From Nitrospinota bacterium (GTDB taxonomy: Bacteria > Nitrospinota > Nitrospinia > Nitrospinales > VA-1): 37,341 nt of DNA. Both the position numbers and the translations under genes were made by a program. The notes under the pieces were generated by a model. It saw only the letters and a program-made list of their open reading frames with translations. It did no database searches and was not told the DNA's origin. Positions 906 through 10,473 of the stretch are shown piece by piece. Location of the stretch: positions 33,809-71,149 of the forward strand of contig JAYNIA010000009.1 in the NCBI GenBank assembly GCA_038108555.1. Reading direction: 5' to 3'. Positions within the stretch are counted from its first letter, which is position 1. Each line of letters begins with the position of its first letter.

Positions 906-2789
906 ATGACCTCAGAAACTTTTGAAAAAAACCTGGCTCTCCTAAAGAAACACCATCCTTTAGCCTTTGAAAGACTCCAGGATTCTGAGGCAATCTCGGG
1001 TTTTGAAATTTCTCCTTCAAATATTGGAGCCCCCACCCTCTCTTACACAAAAGGCGATAAAAGTAAAATCTATCTGCTAAGCAAATACGATCCCCTTAGG
1101 GAAGCAAAACGATTTATTGAATCTCTCAATGTTAACCATTGCACAAATTTTGTAGTTCTTGGCATGGGCTTGGGTTATCAAATTGAAAAATTAATTGATT
1201 CCGTTCCCGAACATTCCAAAATTTTTGTAATTGAAAGTAACCGAAGTATGGCCAGGTTGGCAATGGAATCAAACGACCTGGTAAAAATTCTAAATTATTC
1301 AGGACTAACCCTGATTTTCCCAGAAAACAGGAAAGAAATAATCTCTTGTCTTGAGGCTGAAAAATATAATTTTTGTTTAAATGGTTACCAATTGATCCAT
1401 CAAAACTCTCTGACTGAAGTAGATCGGATTGAATACGGTAAAATCCAAAAAGAGTTGAAATCATTTTTTCAAGCCACAAATATCGAATTAAAAACTCAAG
1501 CTGTAAAATCGAAACAGTTTTACAAAAACATATCTCAGAACTTTAAGAATTTAATTTCAAGTCCGGGAATAAATCATTTAAATAATTTATTTCAAAATGT
1601 TCCAGCAATAATTTGTTCTGCGGGCCCTTCCCTTGATAAAAACATCCATTATCTAAAGGCAAAAAGGGATAATTATTTATTAATTTCCGTAGCAACTGCC
1701 CTAAACTGCCTGATTAAAAATAATATTTATCCTGATTTTGTGCTTGCCGTTGATCCTCACGAAGTATCCACACACTTTTTTGTTCCCGGAAATCATCTAA
1801 GGGATATTAGATTAGTTTACGATCCGGTAATTCCACCTGGGATTCCGGAGTTTTTTAAGAACAAATCTTTTACTTATGATTCTTCTATTAATTTGGCTCG
1901 ATGGTTTCAAAAGCAAAGCGGCGGTAATGGTTCCCTGGGAAATGTAATGTCAGTGGCCCACGCGGCTCACCAACTCTCCATTTCCCTTGGGTGCTCACCC
2001 ATCATTTTTATAGGACAAGACCTTTCTTTTGAGAATAAAAGACTTCATTCCAAAAACACATATTTTCATCAACGTAGGGAGAATAAGATTGAAAGGTTTA
2101 ACACCATGGATATTTTGGATGGTTTGAAATTTAAAAAATATTCAGATCATATACTTGAACGGATGGATATTTTTAACAATTCAATAAAAACCACAGTGGC
2201 AATGGATACTTATTCTCAAATGTTTTCGGCAGACATTAGAAACCCCTCCAAGACTTTTAATTCGACAGAAGGTGGCTTGGGTATTAAAGGAGTCGGCAAC
2301 CATTTACTCAGGGAAATTATTTATAAAATTTGCCCCAAAAATGTTGCTTCCATTAAAGCGAAAGCATTTAACTCCATTACCCCCAAATCCATTCCCAAAA
2401 CGAAACTCGTTGAGGCCGCAAAACATCAATACGGTTTATTAAATCAAATTCATTCCCACCTCAGTACTGTAGAGGAAAAATATCTTAATGAAACCTTGCC
2501 TACAGAAAAAACTAAAGAAAGCTTTACCCAAGAAATGAACAAGACCATTAAAAATTTATTAAAAAATGAAGAAACAACATTGCTTCTCCAAGGATATGAT
2601 TTTTCCGGGTTTTCTTTATGGAATCAGAAAACCAATGAAATTTTGAGAAGGAAAAGTTTGGCCCCTTCTAAAAACCTGATAAACGAAGAGTTTCAGAGGG
2701 ACCAGGAGTTTTTTGGGGTATTAAAAAACTCTGTTGAATTTAATAAGAACGCCTTTAAAAAATTGATGGCTACTTGTGATTCACTTTAA
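906..2789 (+). CDS. Motility-associated factor (Maf/DUF115) family glycosyltransferase-like protein
   Basis: SKYDPLREA, VLGMGLGY, IICSAGPSLDKNI, VLAVDP, IIFIGQDLSF and NSTEGG motifs; 627 aa. Confidence 0.8.
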   Translation: MTSETFEKNLALLKKHHPLAFERLQDSEAISGFEISPSNIGAPTLSYTKGDKSKIYLLSKYDPLREAKRFIESLNVNHCTNFVVLGMGLGYQIEKLIDSVPEHSKIFVIESNRSMARLAMESNDLVKILNYSGLTLIFPENRKEIISCLEAEKYNFCLNGYQLIHQNSLTEVDRIEYGKIQKELKSFFQATNIELKTQAVKSKQFYKNISQNFKNLISSPGINHLNNLFQNVPAIICSAGPSLDKNIHYLKAKRDNYLLISVATALNCLIKNNIYPDFVLAVDPHEVSTHFFVPGNHLRDIRLVYDPVIPPGIPEFFKNKSFTYDSSINLARWFQKQSGGNGSLGNVMSVAHAAHQLSISLGCSPIIFIGQDLSFENKRLHSKNTYFHQRRENKIERFNTMDILDGLKFKKYSDHILERMDIFNNSIKTTVAMDTYSQMFSADIRNPSKTFNSTEGGLGIKGVGNHLLREIIYKICPKNVASIKAKAFNSITPKSIPKTKLVEAAKHQYGLLNQIHSHLSTVEEKYLNETLPTEKTKESFTQEMNKTIKNLLKNEETTLLLQGYDFSGFSLWNQKTNEILRRKSLAPSKNLINEEFQRDQEFFGVLKNSVEFNKNAFKKLMATCDSL

Positions 2790-3771
2790 ATTTTCTCACA
2801 TTCAATAACACTCGATCCCCGAACCAATTCAAAAGTCTTAAAATTGGAAAATCCCATTTTACTTAATAATGCCTTTGTTTCTTTCTCACCATAAGTTCTA
2901 CCCGTTTTGGTATACATCAACATCGTTATTGAAAACATAGCGGCATCATAGGGTTGAGTTCGCGCCTCATTTAAAAACAAATCAACGATTATCAGCCTTC
3001 CTCCAGGTTTTAAACAAGAGTGTATTTTTTCTAATAGGACTAAATTTTCTTTTTCACTATAAATATGCAGAATATTTGAATATAAGACAGTATCATTTTC
3101 AGATTCAAAATTTACTTCAAACAAATCTCCCGGACAAAAGGTAAACCTTTTATAGCTTGATTTGGATTTCAGCAAGTTCTTTGCAACCTTCAAGCTATGA
3201 GGCCTATCTACAATTGTAACTTTCGATTTTTTGTCCAATTTTAAAATCTCTGCGGAATACGTCCCAGGCCCCCCCCAACGTCCAAAAGTTTACCCACAGA
3301 TTTTCGTGCAACTATTTTTGCAAGGGGCTTTGAATAGTTTTCACTTCGTTCATGCATTGCATGTGTAAATAATTCCCTGTAATTTGCATCATCCTCCCCT
3401 TCAAATTCTTCCAGGTTTCGGCCATTTTTCAGAACCTCCAGCAACCCTGACCATTCTTCCCTCATATCCTGCTTTAAAAATACTGTACCTTTTTTAAAAT
3501 CTTTGCTTGATTCACAAAGGTATTTGAAAGATTCAGAACTGTTTTTATATTTATTATTTTTCTTGATCAATACTTTCATAGCACATAAGGCATCTAACAA
3601 AGCTGAAGCTCCTTCAGGATCTAATTTAGCCTTGTTCGCAATAAATTTGCTGGTCCTTGGGGTCTTACCTAAATGAGTGAAAATTTTAAATTTTAAGGCG
3701 GCAGCACGAAGGTTGGCCTCTTCCAGCTTTTCAATCCTATCCATGATTTCAGAAAAATTAAGCAATCTCAT
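2786..3771 (-). pseudogene. Methyltransf_2-type O-methyltransferase with dimerisation domain, frameshifted in a G8 tract (or sequencing error)
   Basis: ORFs 3241-3789 and 2786-3238 join into LLDVGGGPGTYSAEILKLDKKSKVTIVD if the C8 run at 3269-3276 is C9. C-half has GDLF, SNILH, LKPGGRLIIVD. Likely start ATG 3771 after AAGGAG. Confidence 0.85.
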
Positions 3772-3861
3772 CAGGAACTCCTTTGCCATAAATGGCTTAT
3801 AGAAATAAGAGCCTATTTATTAAAAATATTCTCTAAAGTTTTATTTTACAATCATTTAGGA

Positions 3862-3890
3862 TTGACAATTCCCTTAAAATGGGTTAACAT
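3862..3890 (+). promoter_or_regulatory. Sigma70-type promoter for the 62-aa ORF
   Basis: TTGACA (3862-3867), 17 bp, TAACAT (3885-3890). Confidence 0.6.
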
Positions 3891-3926
3891 AAATAATATC
3901 ATTAAAAACACAATACGGAGGCTGGC

Positions 3927-4115
3927 ATGGAAGCTATGCACGAAAGGCGAATGCCTTCTCCCGAAGAAAATCGTTCGAAGTCCGAAGAAAACTCCTTTGA
4001 TGCCTTCGAAAAAAAACTTCGGGATGAAAATTTGCGCCTATTTAGAAACCTGCGGTTGCAGGAAATGATGGGTAAAATTAAATCAGACGAACCCAATAAA
4101 TGGCCTTTTAAATAA
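3927..4115 (+). CDS. Small hypothetical protein, 62 aa
   Basis: GGAGG RBS at 3917-3921, ATG, upstream consensus promoter; fills the intergenic gap. Confidence 0.7.
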   Translation: MEAMHERRMPSPEENRSKSEENSFDAFEKKLRDENLRLFRNLRLQEMMGKIKSDEPNKWPFK

Positions 4116-4134
4116 ATTGGATGGGTCTTTGGAA

Positions 4135-4806
4135 TTAATCTGCCAACAGGTTTTCTATTTCTCTATCAAGTCCAAACCCACTTCCAAACCATTTTCCACG
4201 CAGTCTTCCCTTTTTATCTATCAAGATGGTTGATGGAGTCCCACGTAACTGGTAATTCTCGAAAGTTTCTGCAGTGAATTCCTTCTTTTTTTGATAACTC
4301 AGCACCTGATCAAACAACTTTTTTTGAGTTGATTCCGGCATTTGCGAATACTCGGGAAAATCTCTATCAATCATTTTTCGGGTATTTTCTTCAGCATTTG
4401 CAGGGTCAGCAGGAATAATGCTATCCATTGCAACAGGAAATGGAATTGAATAGGAAAGCCGATTATTTTCCAACAAACCCTGGCTTCCCAAGGCGTATAA
4501 TGTTTCCCCTACCACCTCTCCATTACCAATTAACTTTTTTAAATTTTCAATATTATTGAATTGATAATCCTCAAAAGCCGTGGATAATCCCCAGAAAATG
4601 ACCGATTCCCCTGAGAATTTTTCATACGCACCAAGGATTTCTGGAAATCCTACACTAAAACATCCTGGGCAATTGACCTGAAAGACCTTAATGACAATAA
4701 TTTTACCAGGTTGCTGGCTGATATTTGAAGGTTGCCCCTGAACCCATTCGGCAATATTTAAATCAGGAGCCGGGTCATTAATTTGAGGCATAACCCGAAT
4801 TTTCAT
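4135..4806 (-). CDS. Redoxin/TlpA-like thioredoxin-fold protein
   Basis: APDLNIAEWVQG, FQVNCPGC (CxxC), GTPSTILIDKKG. Alternative start ATG 4791. Confidence 0.8.
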   Translation of the reverse strand: MKIRVMPQINDPAPDLNIAEWVQGQPSNISQQPGKIIVIKVFQVNCPGCFSVGFPEILGAYEKFSGESVIFWGLSTAFEDYQFNNIENLKKLIGNGEVVGETLYALGSQGLLENNRLSYSIPFPVAMDSIIPADPANAEENTRKMIDRDFPEYSQMPESTQKKLFDQVLSYQKKKEFTAETFENYQLRGTPSTILIDKKGRLRGKWFGSGFGLDREIENLLAD

Positions 4807-6655: not shown

Positions 6656-6949
6656 GTGGCTAAAGTATTTTTTAAAACCGACAATGTTACCCATGAAGTG
6701 GAGGACGGAACACCATTGATTGATTTATGTGACGAAATTGGCGTTTCCCTTTCTTTTGGTTGTACAGAAGGTACTTGTGGTGTTTGTGAAGTTACGGTTG
6801 TAAAAGGTATGGAAAATCTTTCTCGAGTTACTGATGAGGAAAAGGACTATTTACTGGAAGAGGACCTTGAGGGGGGGATGCGCCTGGGTTGCCAGGTCAG
6901 AATCCGAAAAGGAGATGTAACCCTGCAATGGAAAAAAGTTAAAGGATAG
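6656..6949 (+). CDS. 2Fe-2S ferredoxin
   Basis: CTEGTCGVC...RLGCQ ligand pattern; GGAG RBS and GTG start. Confidence 0.9.
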   Translation: MAKVFFKTDNVTHEVEDGTPLIDLCDEIGVSLSFGCTEGTCGVCEVTVVKGMENLSRVTDEEKDYLLEEDLEGGMRLGCQVRIRKGDVTLQWKKVKG

Positions 6950-6951
6950 AA

Positions 6952-9513
6952 CTACAAGCCACTGTCTTTAATATCTTCTTCGACCTTTTTAACCATCCAT
7001 TCTTTGATTTCTTCAGCAAGCTTTTTTGCTTCGTCTTTAGGATTATCGGGCAAGGCTTGACTGGCTAAATCTGCGAAACTCATAGCCTCTTCAGCAGGGC
7101 CCGACTTCTGGTAAACCAGAGACATTTTCCACAAAGCCTGCGCTTCCAGAAATCTTTCCCCATTTTTACGCCCAATAGATTTTGCATGACGAAAACAAAT
7201 CAAAGCTTTTTCATCATTAGCCAATTCCCAATAGACTTCTCCCAGGCTTTTTAACAAACTGTATTCAACTTTAAAGTGGGTACCTTTGCGAATCTTTGGC
7301 CAGCCTTTTTCATAAAACTCTGCTGCCTTTTCATACTCTTTAATTTGTTGGTAAAAATCCCCAGTTTTCTTGAGAATAAATCCCTGATTTCTTTTATCAC
7401 CGATTTTTTTAGCTAAAGTCAGAGCGGCATCCAGATTTTCTATAGCCTTTTTGTGTTTACCCATTTTCATATTGGCGTTAGCCATATTTTCCATGACCCC
7501 CATCTCACGAATCCGGTCATCGCATTGTCTGGCAGCTGTTTTTGCTTGTTTGAAAAAATTTACTGCTCCGGAAAATTTTTTCATTTGGGTATTTACTACC
7601 CCTAAATCATCAAGGTTTTTGGCCACTTGTTTTTTATCGTTCAGTTTTTGGGCCATATCCAAAGACTTTTTAAAGTTAATTTCAGCCTGTTCCAGTTCGT
7701 CCGATTTTTGGTAAGCCTGTGCTAAAAAATCAACAACCTCCATTTCTTTTTTCTTATTTCCTTCGAGTTTTACAAACTCCAAAACCTTCTCAAAACATTC
7801 ACAGGCACGATCATATTGTTTGATCTCCAGACAAGCTTGTCCCAGCAAATTCAGGGCATCCTTTTCATCTTTTGAATGTCCCAGCTGATTCGCCAAAATT
7901 TGTGCATCTTCCAAATACTCCGCTGCCTTTTCATAATGCCCCATATCATTCAACTGCATTCCGAGAGTGAGCAGATTATTTTTTTCGGATTCGATATTTT
8001 CAGATTCCCGAGAAGCGGCAAGAGCCGATTCATTCCATTGGATACATTCTTCCGGGGGGTGCCGCATCGGCATAAGAGTTCTGGCCTGAGTACAATAGTC
8101 CCCGCATAATTTTGCTATGGTTGCGTCTTCCGTACTTTTGTTGGCCGACCATGCCTGCCCTGCTTGAATATTGGGCCAATTAAGGTCGAACATATTCAGG
8201 GCACTTTCAGCACCCTCTTCGTCTTTTTCATAAAGCTCATTGGCTTCAGACAATACTTCATAATAATAAAGGGCAAGATTCCTATGGGTTAGAATTTTCT
8301 CTGATGGTCTGACATTTTTAGAAACTAGTTTTCTAATAATTTCATGAAAGCTGTATCTTTGATTCAAAGGATCATAATTAATCAGTTTTAAAGCAACCAA
8401 CCTTTTTAAATGTTCGTTTTCCCGGTCTCCACATATATTTTCTTCGGCCTTTTCATCAAATGAATCTGCAAACAAAGCTAGTTTACGAAGAACCGTTGCT
8501 GTTTCTTTTTTTAATTCCCTGTTAACGATATTAAAAATAGCCTGAACATCCCGATCAATTATTTCAATGTCCGGTTTTTCCTTTTTTAAAAATTCATCAC
8601 CTTCCGGTTTCATTATCATTCGTTCTTCACGAAGCTGATTGATTATATTATTTAAAGGATAATCGGGGTTTGCTTTTATAAAGGACCCTGCCAGTGCTAC
8701 GGCTAAAGGGTTATTTCCACATAACTCTGATATTTCCCCTGCATCTCTTTTGGCGTTTGAAGCGAGAAAAAACAATAAAAGTTCACCTTCATCGGGGTGT
8801 AATTCTTTTACCTGTCTGGAAAAAGATCCCGGGGGTGCTATTTTTGTTTCTGATGTAACAATTAACAATCCCGATTTGGGAGGCATCAACTGCTTCACCT
8901 GGCTTAGTTTTTTCACATTTTCCAGGGCAATCAGAATTCTTTTCCCCCGGAAGCATGCTCCATACCTTTCAGATAGTTCGTAAGGATCGGAAGGAATTGG
9001 ATCTGTGGGATAAAAGGCTCGCAAGACATACCCCATGGCCTTACTAACTGACAAAGGTTTTTCACCATCTCCTTTTAGATCAATATAAAATTGTGCATCC
9101 GGATATTTGGGTGCCAACTGATGTGCTAATTCAAGTGCCAATGATGTTTATCCAATACCTTTTTTCCCATAAAGAACTATGGGACCACTTCCTCCCCAAT
9201 TTTTACTATTGACTTCATTCAGGATATCTTTTCTTCCAAAGAAAGCTTCCAGCTTATCCGGTAACTGTTTGGTAGATAATGCTGGAAAGCTTCTTGAATT
9301 GATCATCGATAATTGATTCAATAGACTGGAACTTGAGCCGGTGGACCCGGAATTCCCTGAGGCAGTTTGAGGGCTGGAGATTTCAACGTTTGGATTTCCT
9401 GAGGAAGGCTCTTCCGAAGATGTGTTTGGATTTTGTCCTGAGGAATCGGAAAAAATAAACTTTAAACCGATAAAAACTACCAACAAAATTATTATAATCA
9501 GGGATAAATCCAT
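6952..9513 (-). pseudogene. Membrane-anchored STAND (NB-ARC) NTPase with C-terminal TPRs, interrupted by an in-frame TAA
   Basis: ORFs 9148-9513 and 6952-9141 are in one frame: LPDKLEAFFGR...LYGKKGIG*TSLALELAH. Walker B-like LIALENV, GNNPLA, FHE motif, then a long TPR array. Confidence 0.8.
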
Positions 9514-9936: not shown

Positions 9937-10473
9937 ATGAATACCGAAATATTAAACGAAAAAGATATATCTCGGGCAATCACCCGTATTTCCCACGAAA
10001 TTATAGAGCGAAATAAGGGGGCAGAAAACATTGCTCTCGTAGGAATTCGCACACGGGGAGTCACCCTTTCCGACAGGCTTCAATCCAAAATAAATTCGAT
10101 TGAAAATACCGAAGTCGCAAATGGAGCATTGGACATTACCCTCTACCGTGATGATCTGGGAGCGGGCCTTCAAAAACCCGAACTAAAAAAAACCGAAATC
10201 ACATTTCCCTTAGAGGGCAAGCATGTAATTCTCTGTGATGATGTTTTATTCACAGGAAGAACCATTCGAGCAGCTATTGATGCTCTAATTGATTTTGGCC
10301 GACCGGCTTCTGTGCAATTGGCGGTATTGATAGATAGGGGCCATCGTGAACTACCTATTAGGCCGGATTATGTTGGGAAAAATATTCCTACTCCAAAATC
10401 CAAACGCGTTCAGGTGCTTTTAAAAGAAATTGATAAGGAAGATAAGGTCATAATTCAGGAGCAGGCAAATTGA
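9937..10473 (+). CDS. pyrR: Pyr operon attenuation regulator / uracil phosphoribosyltransferase
   Basis: [49 protein letters not shown]. Confidence 0.97.

Follow-up and report, generated by a model that had tools for sequence, protein, structure and literature searches.

The window analysed here, a 37,341-nucleotide stretch of a Nitrospinota genome, contains a gene whose reading frame is interrupted exactly at the Walker A lysine. Is this stop an error, a functional boundary or a null allele, and what would the intact protein do? The gene (window 6952..9513, minus strand), a clade A TM-STAND-TPR gene, is a single frame of 853 codons, and its orthologs of 851-854 aa have no stop. The sole internal stop is a TAA at codon 122 (9148-9150, minus strand), which occupies the Walker A lysine site in the context GKKGIG*TS. 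The ORF pieces called are 121 aa (9148-9513) and 729 aa (6952..9141, minus strand, from TTG 9141); the latter is a gene-caller product that lacks both the anchor and the P-loop lysine. A preliminary description had claimed two in-frame ORFs with a stop exactly at the Walker A lysine, and the 853-codon frame bears this out.

Seven sequencing runs contained words of the stretch; none of the run matches listed was an RNA run. Four estuary runs of one study (X1-X4) contained most of the stretch and were compared, and X5-X7 contained small shares of it. The allele data are assembled contigs from this one study and hence carry no frequencies; X1 is possibly the source sample. TAA was read in the contigs of two runs, X1 (depth 11.3) and X3 (depth 3). 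X2 (depth 7.25) and X4 (depth 4.8) differed from the window at 9150 and 9151 and read GGG AAA ACA, i.e., Gly-Lys-Thr; the X2 contig spans 7086-9290 and is free of any further stop. The stop allele and the intact allele were each found in two of these four runs, all from one study; the stop is therefore a natural allele beside an intact allele, and it segregates together with 9151. Close orthologs have AAA at codon 122, preceded by GGA, GGG, or GGT, so that the two alleles may differ by one double change or by two single changes from GGA AAA. Four further listed variants in the gene were all nonsynonymous (small numbers), and two of them restore the ortholog residue. The stop is a real allele segregating in the wild population, and we consider it very probable that it is a recent pseudogene allele. 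As a null allele it is likely unremarkable, one case of ordinary gene loss of recent date, and it would yield just a 121-aa anchored stub.

Two other explanations of the stop are hard to credit. Read-through of the TAA, by recoding or a suppressor tRNA, or a sequencing or assembly error would accord with the in-frame TAA found in both family copies of this genome; however, TAA terminates 619 of 1144 long ORFs, none of the 36 tRNAs reads a stop, and the genome's internal stops include all three stop codons and fall at K, E, W, Q, and R positions. The preliminary description had asked whether 9150 is an assembly error; TAA is present in contigs of two separately assembled runs (X1 and X3), and the nearest N run is 9 kb off. 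This explanation is already largely refuted and is very improbable. The second, also raised in the preliminary description, is a functional split gene that restarts at TTG 9141 and gives a soluble 729-aa protein with or without the 121-aa anchored piece. The in-frame TTG lies 6 bases past the stop with GGA upstream, and in the paralog the stop is directly followed by ATG. However, one ortholog (L004) has CTA at that codon, the cut takes off the first strand of the core together with its P-loop, intact relatives show no split at this point, and intact alleles occur in the same population. Comparison of orthologs and loci revealed nothing indicating production of the 729-aa ORF, and we give a functional split hardly any credence. 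The stop is best annotated as a segregating pseudogene allele rather than as a split gene.

The intact frame encodes a multidomain protein (all features on the minus strand). It begins with a single N-terminal hydrophobic helix, a predicted membrane anchor (residues 2-21; 9451..9510; Kyte-Doolittle hydropathy 3.04), which is also a helix (2-21) in the AlphaFold model of ortholog P0002. A disordered linker of lowest conservation follows (residues 22-62; 9328..9450), as judged from the model, conservation, and composition (S/N/P = 59%). The next segment, a conserved pre-NBD helix (residues 63-84; 9262..9327), had the highest conservation in clade A (mean column 0.91 vs. 0.77-0.88 for folded domains; 25 clade A homologs) and is a candidate partner-binding or assembly element. 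The STAND core, consisting of NBD, helical domain, and winged helix (residues 85-398; 8320..9261), was assigned by homology, model, and fold search; an arm-like helical domain with approximate boundaries (~residues 399-485; 8059..8319) by model and fold search; and a C-terminal TPR sensor array (~residues 486-820; 7054..8058) by Pfam (TPR_12, E 1.6e-32) and model.

The P0002 model (51 sequences; pLDDT 85.8) has the order helix, disordered tether, NBD, helical domain, winged helix, arm, TPR. When this model was used for a Foldseek search, the top match was PH0952 (6mfv; E 9.6e-17), and Apaf-1 (1z6t; E 1.7e-10) was one of the leading STAND matches. The P-loop NBD is followed by helical (GxP) and winged-helix domains, and GxxPLA is present in the motif alignment. 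Pfam NB-ARC (PF00931) gave no match to the window protein at E<=0.1, nor to P0002. The NB-ARC gathering score (23.5 bits) was exceeded by 6 of 14 family members scanned; clade A is missed by PF00931, yet is homologous at E<1e-50 to members exceeding that score. Because homologs and predicted fold point to STAND, the absent Pfam match leaves this assignment standing: the window protein is, as homologs and the predicted fold confirm, an AP-ATPase-type STAND with a TPR sensor. The NB-ARC claim of the preliminary description holds for the STAND core, by homologs and fold (PH0952, Apaf-1), with the correction that the Pfam NB-ARC model does not match this protein. Its other structural claims were sound: the N-terminal TM helix, the S/N/P-rich linker, the motifs LENV, TSE, and FHE, and the TPR array are all present, and hydropathy and the P0002 model agree with a membrane-tethered protein that has a single hydrophobic helix and no enzyme domain. 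The best NCBIfam matches over core and TPR were HaaT (E 1.8e-59), AfsR (E 2.8e-39), and FxSxx (E 2.6e-24), with scores far under the cut-offs (202/1125, 135/1430, and 86/300 bits, respectively). An ESM Atlas feature search returned NB-ARC-type clusters only, none of them named Nitrospinota.

A motif census was performed on 113 loci, of which 95 had an ORF covering the core and 18 were dropped; the rows comprised 44 from Nitrospinota (4 being the same gene fetched twice) and 51 from outside. The Walker A lysine was present in 43/44 Nitrospinota rows and 51/51 outside rows; the window allele has the stop and the X2/X4 allele has lysine. The Walker B aspartate and the sensor-1 arginine are canonical features of STAND proteins. 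Both are absent from the window protein, which has E198 in the Walker B region (8917..8937, minus strand) and E222 in the sensor-1 motif TSE (8848..8865, minus strand). The aspartate was found in 31/44 Nitrospinota vs. 50/51 outside rows, and 12 clade A rows besides the window copy have glutamate. The arginine was found in 5/44 vs. 51/51 rows. The MHD-equivalent is SFHE (8341..8352, minus strand); the MHD histidine was present in 40/44 Nitrospinota rows, and HD in 15/44 vs. 48/51 outside. An N-terminal hydrophobic window was found in 43/44 Nitrospinota rows, the exception being a broken paralog's downstream piece, vs. 16/51 outside.

In a quick tree with SH-aLRT only, from which duplicates and every second outside row were omitted, a branch with SH-aLRT 99 set the 41 Nitrospinota rows apart from the rest; of the five rows that keep the arginine, four branched beside the outside group, with weak support. 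The drift in these motifs was thus inherited from the ancestor of the clade and does not reflect decay of the window copy. The preliminary description had left it to homologs to show whether the gene is intact elsewhere, keeps its TM helix and shares the degenerate motifs: four same-genus orthologs are unbroken, the helix is kept in 43/44 rows, and the arginine is lacking in 39/44.

The intact protein could be a pure pseudo-NTPase scaffold, in which the nucleotide is structural, no switching occurs, and the TPR merely docks partners at the membrane. The clade A change of Walker B D to E in 12 rows, the loss of the sensor-1 arginine, and the frequent HE for HD would fit, and inactive bacterial STANDs are on record in the available text of PMC8195603. 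However, GK[T/S] is retained in 42/44 rows and the MHD histidine in 40/44, every switch domain is present in the P0002 model, and TTE-type NLRs still activate (PMC8559963, available text). That text describes the sensor-1 arginine as contacting ATP, and RPP1-type NLRs with TTE/Q as ADP-bound when active; arginine loss need not kill the switch. We regard a pure pseudo-NTPase as possible but rather unlikely.

A long match (E<=1e-55) was found in 30 of 61 genomes searched. The four same-genus orthologs are 77-80% identical and syntenic; homologs at 56-63% identity are annotated as Nitrospina or Nitrospinaceae TPR proteins, which points to a Nitrospinota genome, and the next relatives, at 26-35% identity, are effector-NB-ARC-TPR proteins of Acidobacteriota, Chloroflexota, KSB1, and methanogens. 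The names ferredoxin, glyQ, glyS, dnaJ, and fab are what we take the respective genes to be, by recognition of their sequences. The locus has two fixed flanks: a convergent 2Fe-2S ferredoxin-like gene (6656..6949, plus strand) and a divergent pyrR-like phosphoribosyltransferase gene (9937..10473, plus strand; Pfam Pribosyltran on the G013 ortholog). Clade A sits between these two in 4/4 close orthologs. In the best 10 GTDB loci, inspected by eye, the pyrR side was conserved in 10/10 and the ferredoxin side in 8/10, with two contigs ending. A 37% relative in G020 is located elsewhere. Three paralog groups were seen in the family. Other order-wide copies adjoin glyQ or glyS in 19/20 loci. In four genomes of the same genus (L051:3830-6352, L177, L178, L179), the third paralog, clade C (~840 aa), and a fatty-acid synthesis cluster are convergent; clade C was not found in this genome, which is 92% complete. 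One paralog (L013:1492-3984), with GKL for GKT and LVFNH at Walker B, lies away from glyQ/glyS and is more degenerate and relocated. Two loci labelled Neomarinimicrobiota and Mucilaginibacter (L187 and L193) carry clade A at 57-66% and are probably misbinned contigs; L187 has Nitrospina-type synteny, with the gene in pieces.

We found no account of the family in the literature, where supplements without taxon names could hide one. The available text of PMC10839748 does not mention TPR or STAND proteins, and "Nitrospin" is absent from seven supplement files of PMC13581612, which may give accessions without taxon names. The family appears to be undescribed, old, order-wide, vertically inherited, membrane-anchored, and devoid of the sensor-1 arginine.

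Purifying selection acts on the intact copies of clade A, TPR included. For G016/G010, the only clean dS pair (most other pairwise dS values were saturated), dN/dS of clade A was 0.066, with 0.047 for the core and 0.068 for the TPR; values for the dnaJ-like gene and pyrR were 0.084 and 0.081. At near-invariant columns, the window copy had 8 changes vs. 8-16 in five intact relatives; since there is no excess at conserved columns, the break is recent. Eight other same-genus genomes contained the ferredoxin gene: four have an intact copy, G008 has remnants, G004 and G009 are cleanly without it, and in G002 the contig ends. Clade A is decayed in G008, G026, and G033 and deleted in G004 and G009, and the clade B copy of G026 is broken too. 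The clade A gene is dispensable, being decayed or deleted in these five relatives. In G026 (L173:2311-4040) and G033 (L175:2310-3880), the decayed gene is interrupted by a short-repeat stretch that contains a repetitive ~300-aa ORF on the opposite strand. A functional N-terminal stub was considered and found no support: in both G026 and G033 the 117-aa ORF no longer has the hydrophobic start, and dN/dS for these ORFs was 0.54 on 14 changes.

We examined breakage across this genome using the 830 of 1190 G013 ORFs that have orthologs here (1.77 of about 3.1 Mb). Seventeen genes looked broken; removal of two shadow/repetitive ORFs and of the FlhF scaffold gap left 14/830, of which one or two are possibly start over-calls. 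The broken set includes the only pyruvate kinase found (in-frame stop at G000:C6:87677), one of two nirK copies (G000:C15:21646), a MotB paralog (G000:C50:16494), the MshL secretin (G000:C1:11916, frameshifted as well), a PhoB-like regulator (G000:C67:3555), HDOD, HD-GYP, a cNMP-binding protein, and both family copies. The second family copy lies between glyQ and glyS (L026:1486-3894 on G000:C4); its linker contains a TAA, in frame, at a site that is Glu in orthologs, and ATG comes directly after this stop. The chance of this copy being hit at the background rate is about 0.03, which suggests relaxed selection on the entire family in this genome. The reciprocal test gave 7 raw breaks/850 for G013, most resembling shadows; the higher break load of this genome had p 0.13 on raw counts and p 0.007 if 3/7 G013 breaks are real, i.e., it was significant only after the shadow discount. 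Genes of signalling, pilus, and motor classes made up 6/12 of the other broken genes vs. 10/80 random intact genes (Fisher p 0.005; 80 of 120 drawn intact genes were scanned, and the category was set after the list was seen). This excess may reflect dispensability only. Within the window, two methyltransferase-like ORFs (3241-3789 and 2786-3238, minus strand; entry 3786-4135) that meet near 3240 are seemingly one gene and possibly another break.

Co-decay with flagella, which the split FlhF had raised, was withdrawn: at the split (G000:C17:41353-41452) the scaffold has a gap of 100 N and an overlap of 55 bases, an artefact of assembly by which annotation could be misled. This genome has 47 N runs. 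With the FlhF frameshift explained in this way, the motility link is weaker. Also against co-decay, FlhA is intact here, G008 keeps FlhA and FlhF intact with a decayed family gene, and many flagellated genomes have no long match to the family. In G026, where family copies are decayed, FlhA and FlhF are broken or truncated (G026:C5:292118-293951); in the closed genome G033, where the family copy is decayed, neither FlhA nor FlhF was found. The tie to motility is a lead only.

What would the intact protein do? We favour, at a probability of roughly 55%, a membrane signalling scaffold rather than a phage alarm. The single helix would hold the protein in the inner membrane, with the remainder cytoplasmic. 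With ADP or ATP bound at the P-loop, the core would be kept closed by the arm and TPR; the models for this are PH0952 and MalT, which the available text of PMC6468293 describes as nucleotide-bound and clamped at rest. A conserved cellular protein would bind the TPR array and open the core. Because no enzyme or DNA-binding domain is attached, the output would be partners recruited to, or clustered at, the membrane, with the pre-NBD segment as the probable means. Without the sensor-1 arginine, the switch is likely not reading the ATP gamma-phosphate in the usual way, for which RPP1 (TTE) is a precedent. The same module serves non-immune regulation in AfsR (PMC10936776, available text), and STAND clades with and without defence roles are intermingled (PMC13581612, section 5). 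Among the options of the preliminary description, the intact family is best matched by a non-catalytic membrane scaffold, although, with 43/44 family rows retaining the P-loop lysine, the word "non-catalytic" is unproven. Counted against a signalling role, patchy presence (30/61 genomes) and repeated loss also fit costly immune genes.

The preliminary description also proposed a TM-effector NLR silenced by a nonsense mutation. In the immune form of this alternative, the single N-terminal helix of an anti-phage NLR would damage membranes as its effector, and the stop would have removed a costly immune gene. Among outside relatives, the nearest have TIR, alpha/beta-hydrolase, or DUF4062 domains, which are typical of conflict systems, and the ancestry is therefore immune-like. 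N-terminal hydrophobic helices of HeLo/MLKL/Rx-type domains kill cells, according to the available text of 10.1101/2020.01.06.895854, and repeated loss with a segregating null allele would suit such a gene. However, the housekeeping loci are fixed across the order, the TPR is under purifying selection, and the helix, set on a disordered tether, is simply a hydrophobic anchor. PADLOC gave a generic TPR model only for 6/6 family members scanned. Of the two marks used in PMC13581612 (section 5), defence neighbourhood and defence effector, the flanks of 1.5-3 kb did not show the former, and for the latter the protein has no enzyme domain. A silenced immune NLR with a TM effector thus finds little support, and we consider it unlikely.

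Membrane signalling by the intact protein could be taken further. Nitrospinota may have turned an immune-type NLR into up to three effector-less, arginine-less, membrane-tethered receptors, which would be ADP-bound, would possibly form mixed paralog oligomers that recruit via the pre-NBD helix, and would govern surface behaviour (pili, motor, c-di-GMP). This extension is speculative, and we think it quite improbable as a whole. If it is true, the paralogs would be lost together as the surface network decays (this genome, G026), and the estuary population would have been caught midway. The family itself, NLR-like with an anchor in place of an effector, would offer a natural test of the move of a STAND protein from defence to housekeeping signalling, and of ADP-bound function. 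A null and an intact allele both exist in the wild, and two cultured carriers are known (Ca. Nitronauta litoralis, QPJ61346.1; Ca. Nitrohelix vancouverensis, QPJ64386.1).

Several known systems resemble the family in part. AfsR (a Streptomyces SARP-NOD-TPR regulator; PMC10936776, available text), HaaT, and FxSxx TPR proteins share the core and TPR module and have non-immune uses. Membership in these groups is not indicated: scores lie under the NCBIfam cut-offs, the family effector is absent with no SARP domain, and no peptide-biosynthesis cluster was seen in the flanks examined. The nearest relatives, effector-NB-ARC-TPR proteins of Acidobacteriota, Chloroflexota, and Methanotrichaceae, are 26-35% identical over core and TPR; they have variable N-termini with TIR, alpha/beta-hydrolase, and DUF4062 fusions, and lie on the opposite side of the 99-supported branch from Nitrospinota.

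Avs/bNACHT anti-phage STANDs share with the family the effector position, the STAND core, and a TPR-like sensor (PMC13581612, available text). In the window family, the N-terminal effector position has no enzyme domain and one predicted hydrophobic helix. No Avs or NACHT defence profile was matched by six family members in PADLOC 2023, a library that predates the Avs families described in 2026, and no defence-gene neighbours were seen at any of the three paralog loci (1.5-3 kb flanks, housekeeping names mostly by eye). In contrast to Avs/bNACHT, the Nitrospinota family occupies vertical, fixed loci. RPP1-type plant NLRs (TTE/Q for TT/SR) have an acidic residue at the ATP-contacting arginine site, as does TSE in the window protein (PMC8559963, available text). 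This likeness is convergent: RPP1-type proteins are plant TIR-NB-LRR immune receptors without a membrane anchor, and ADP binding in the Nitrospinota family is putative. PH0952 of Pyrococcus horikoshii (6mfv; Foldseek TMq 0.36, 16% identity) and MalT are STAND ATPases with a TPR sensor that have the same order of NBD, helical, winged-helix, arm, and TPR domains (PMC6468293, available text). Both are soluble and have DNA-binding effector domains, whereas the Nitrospinota family has no such domain and begins with a hydrophobic helix.
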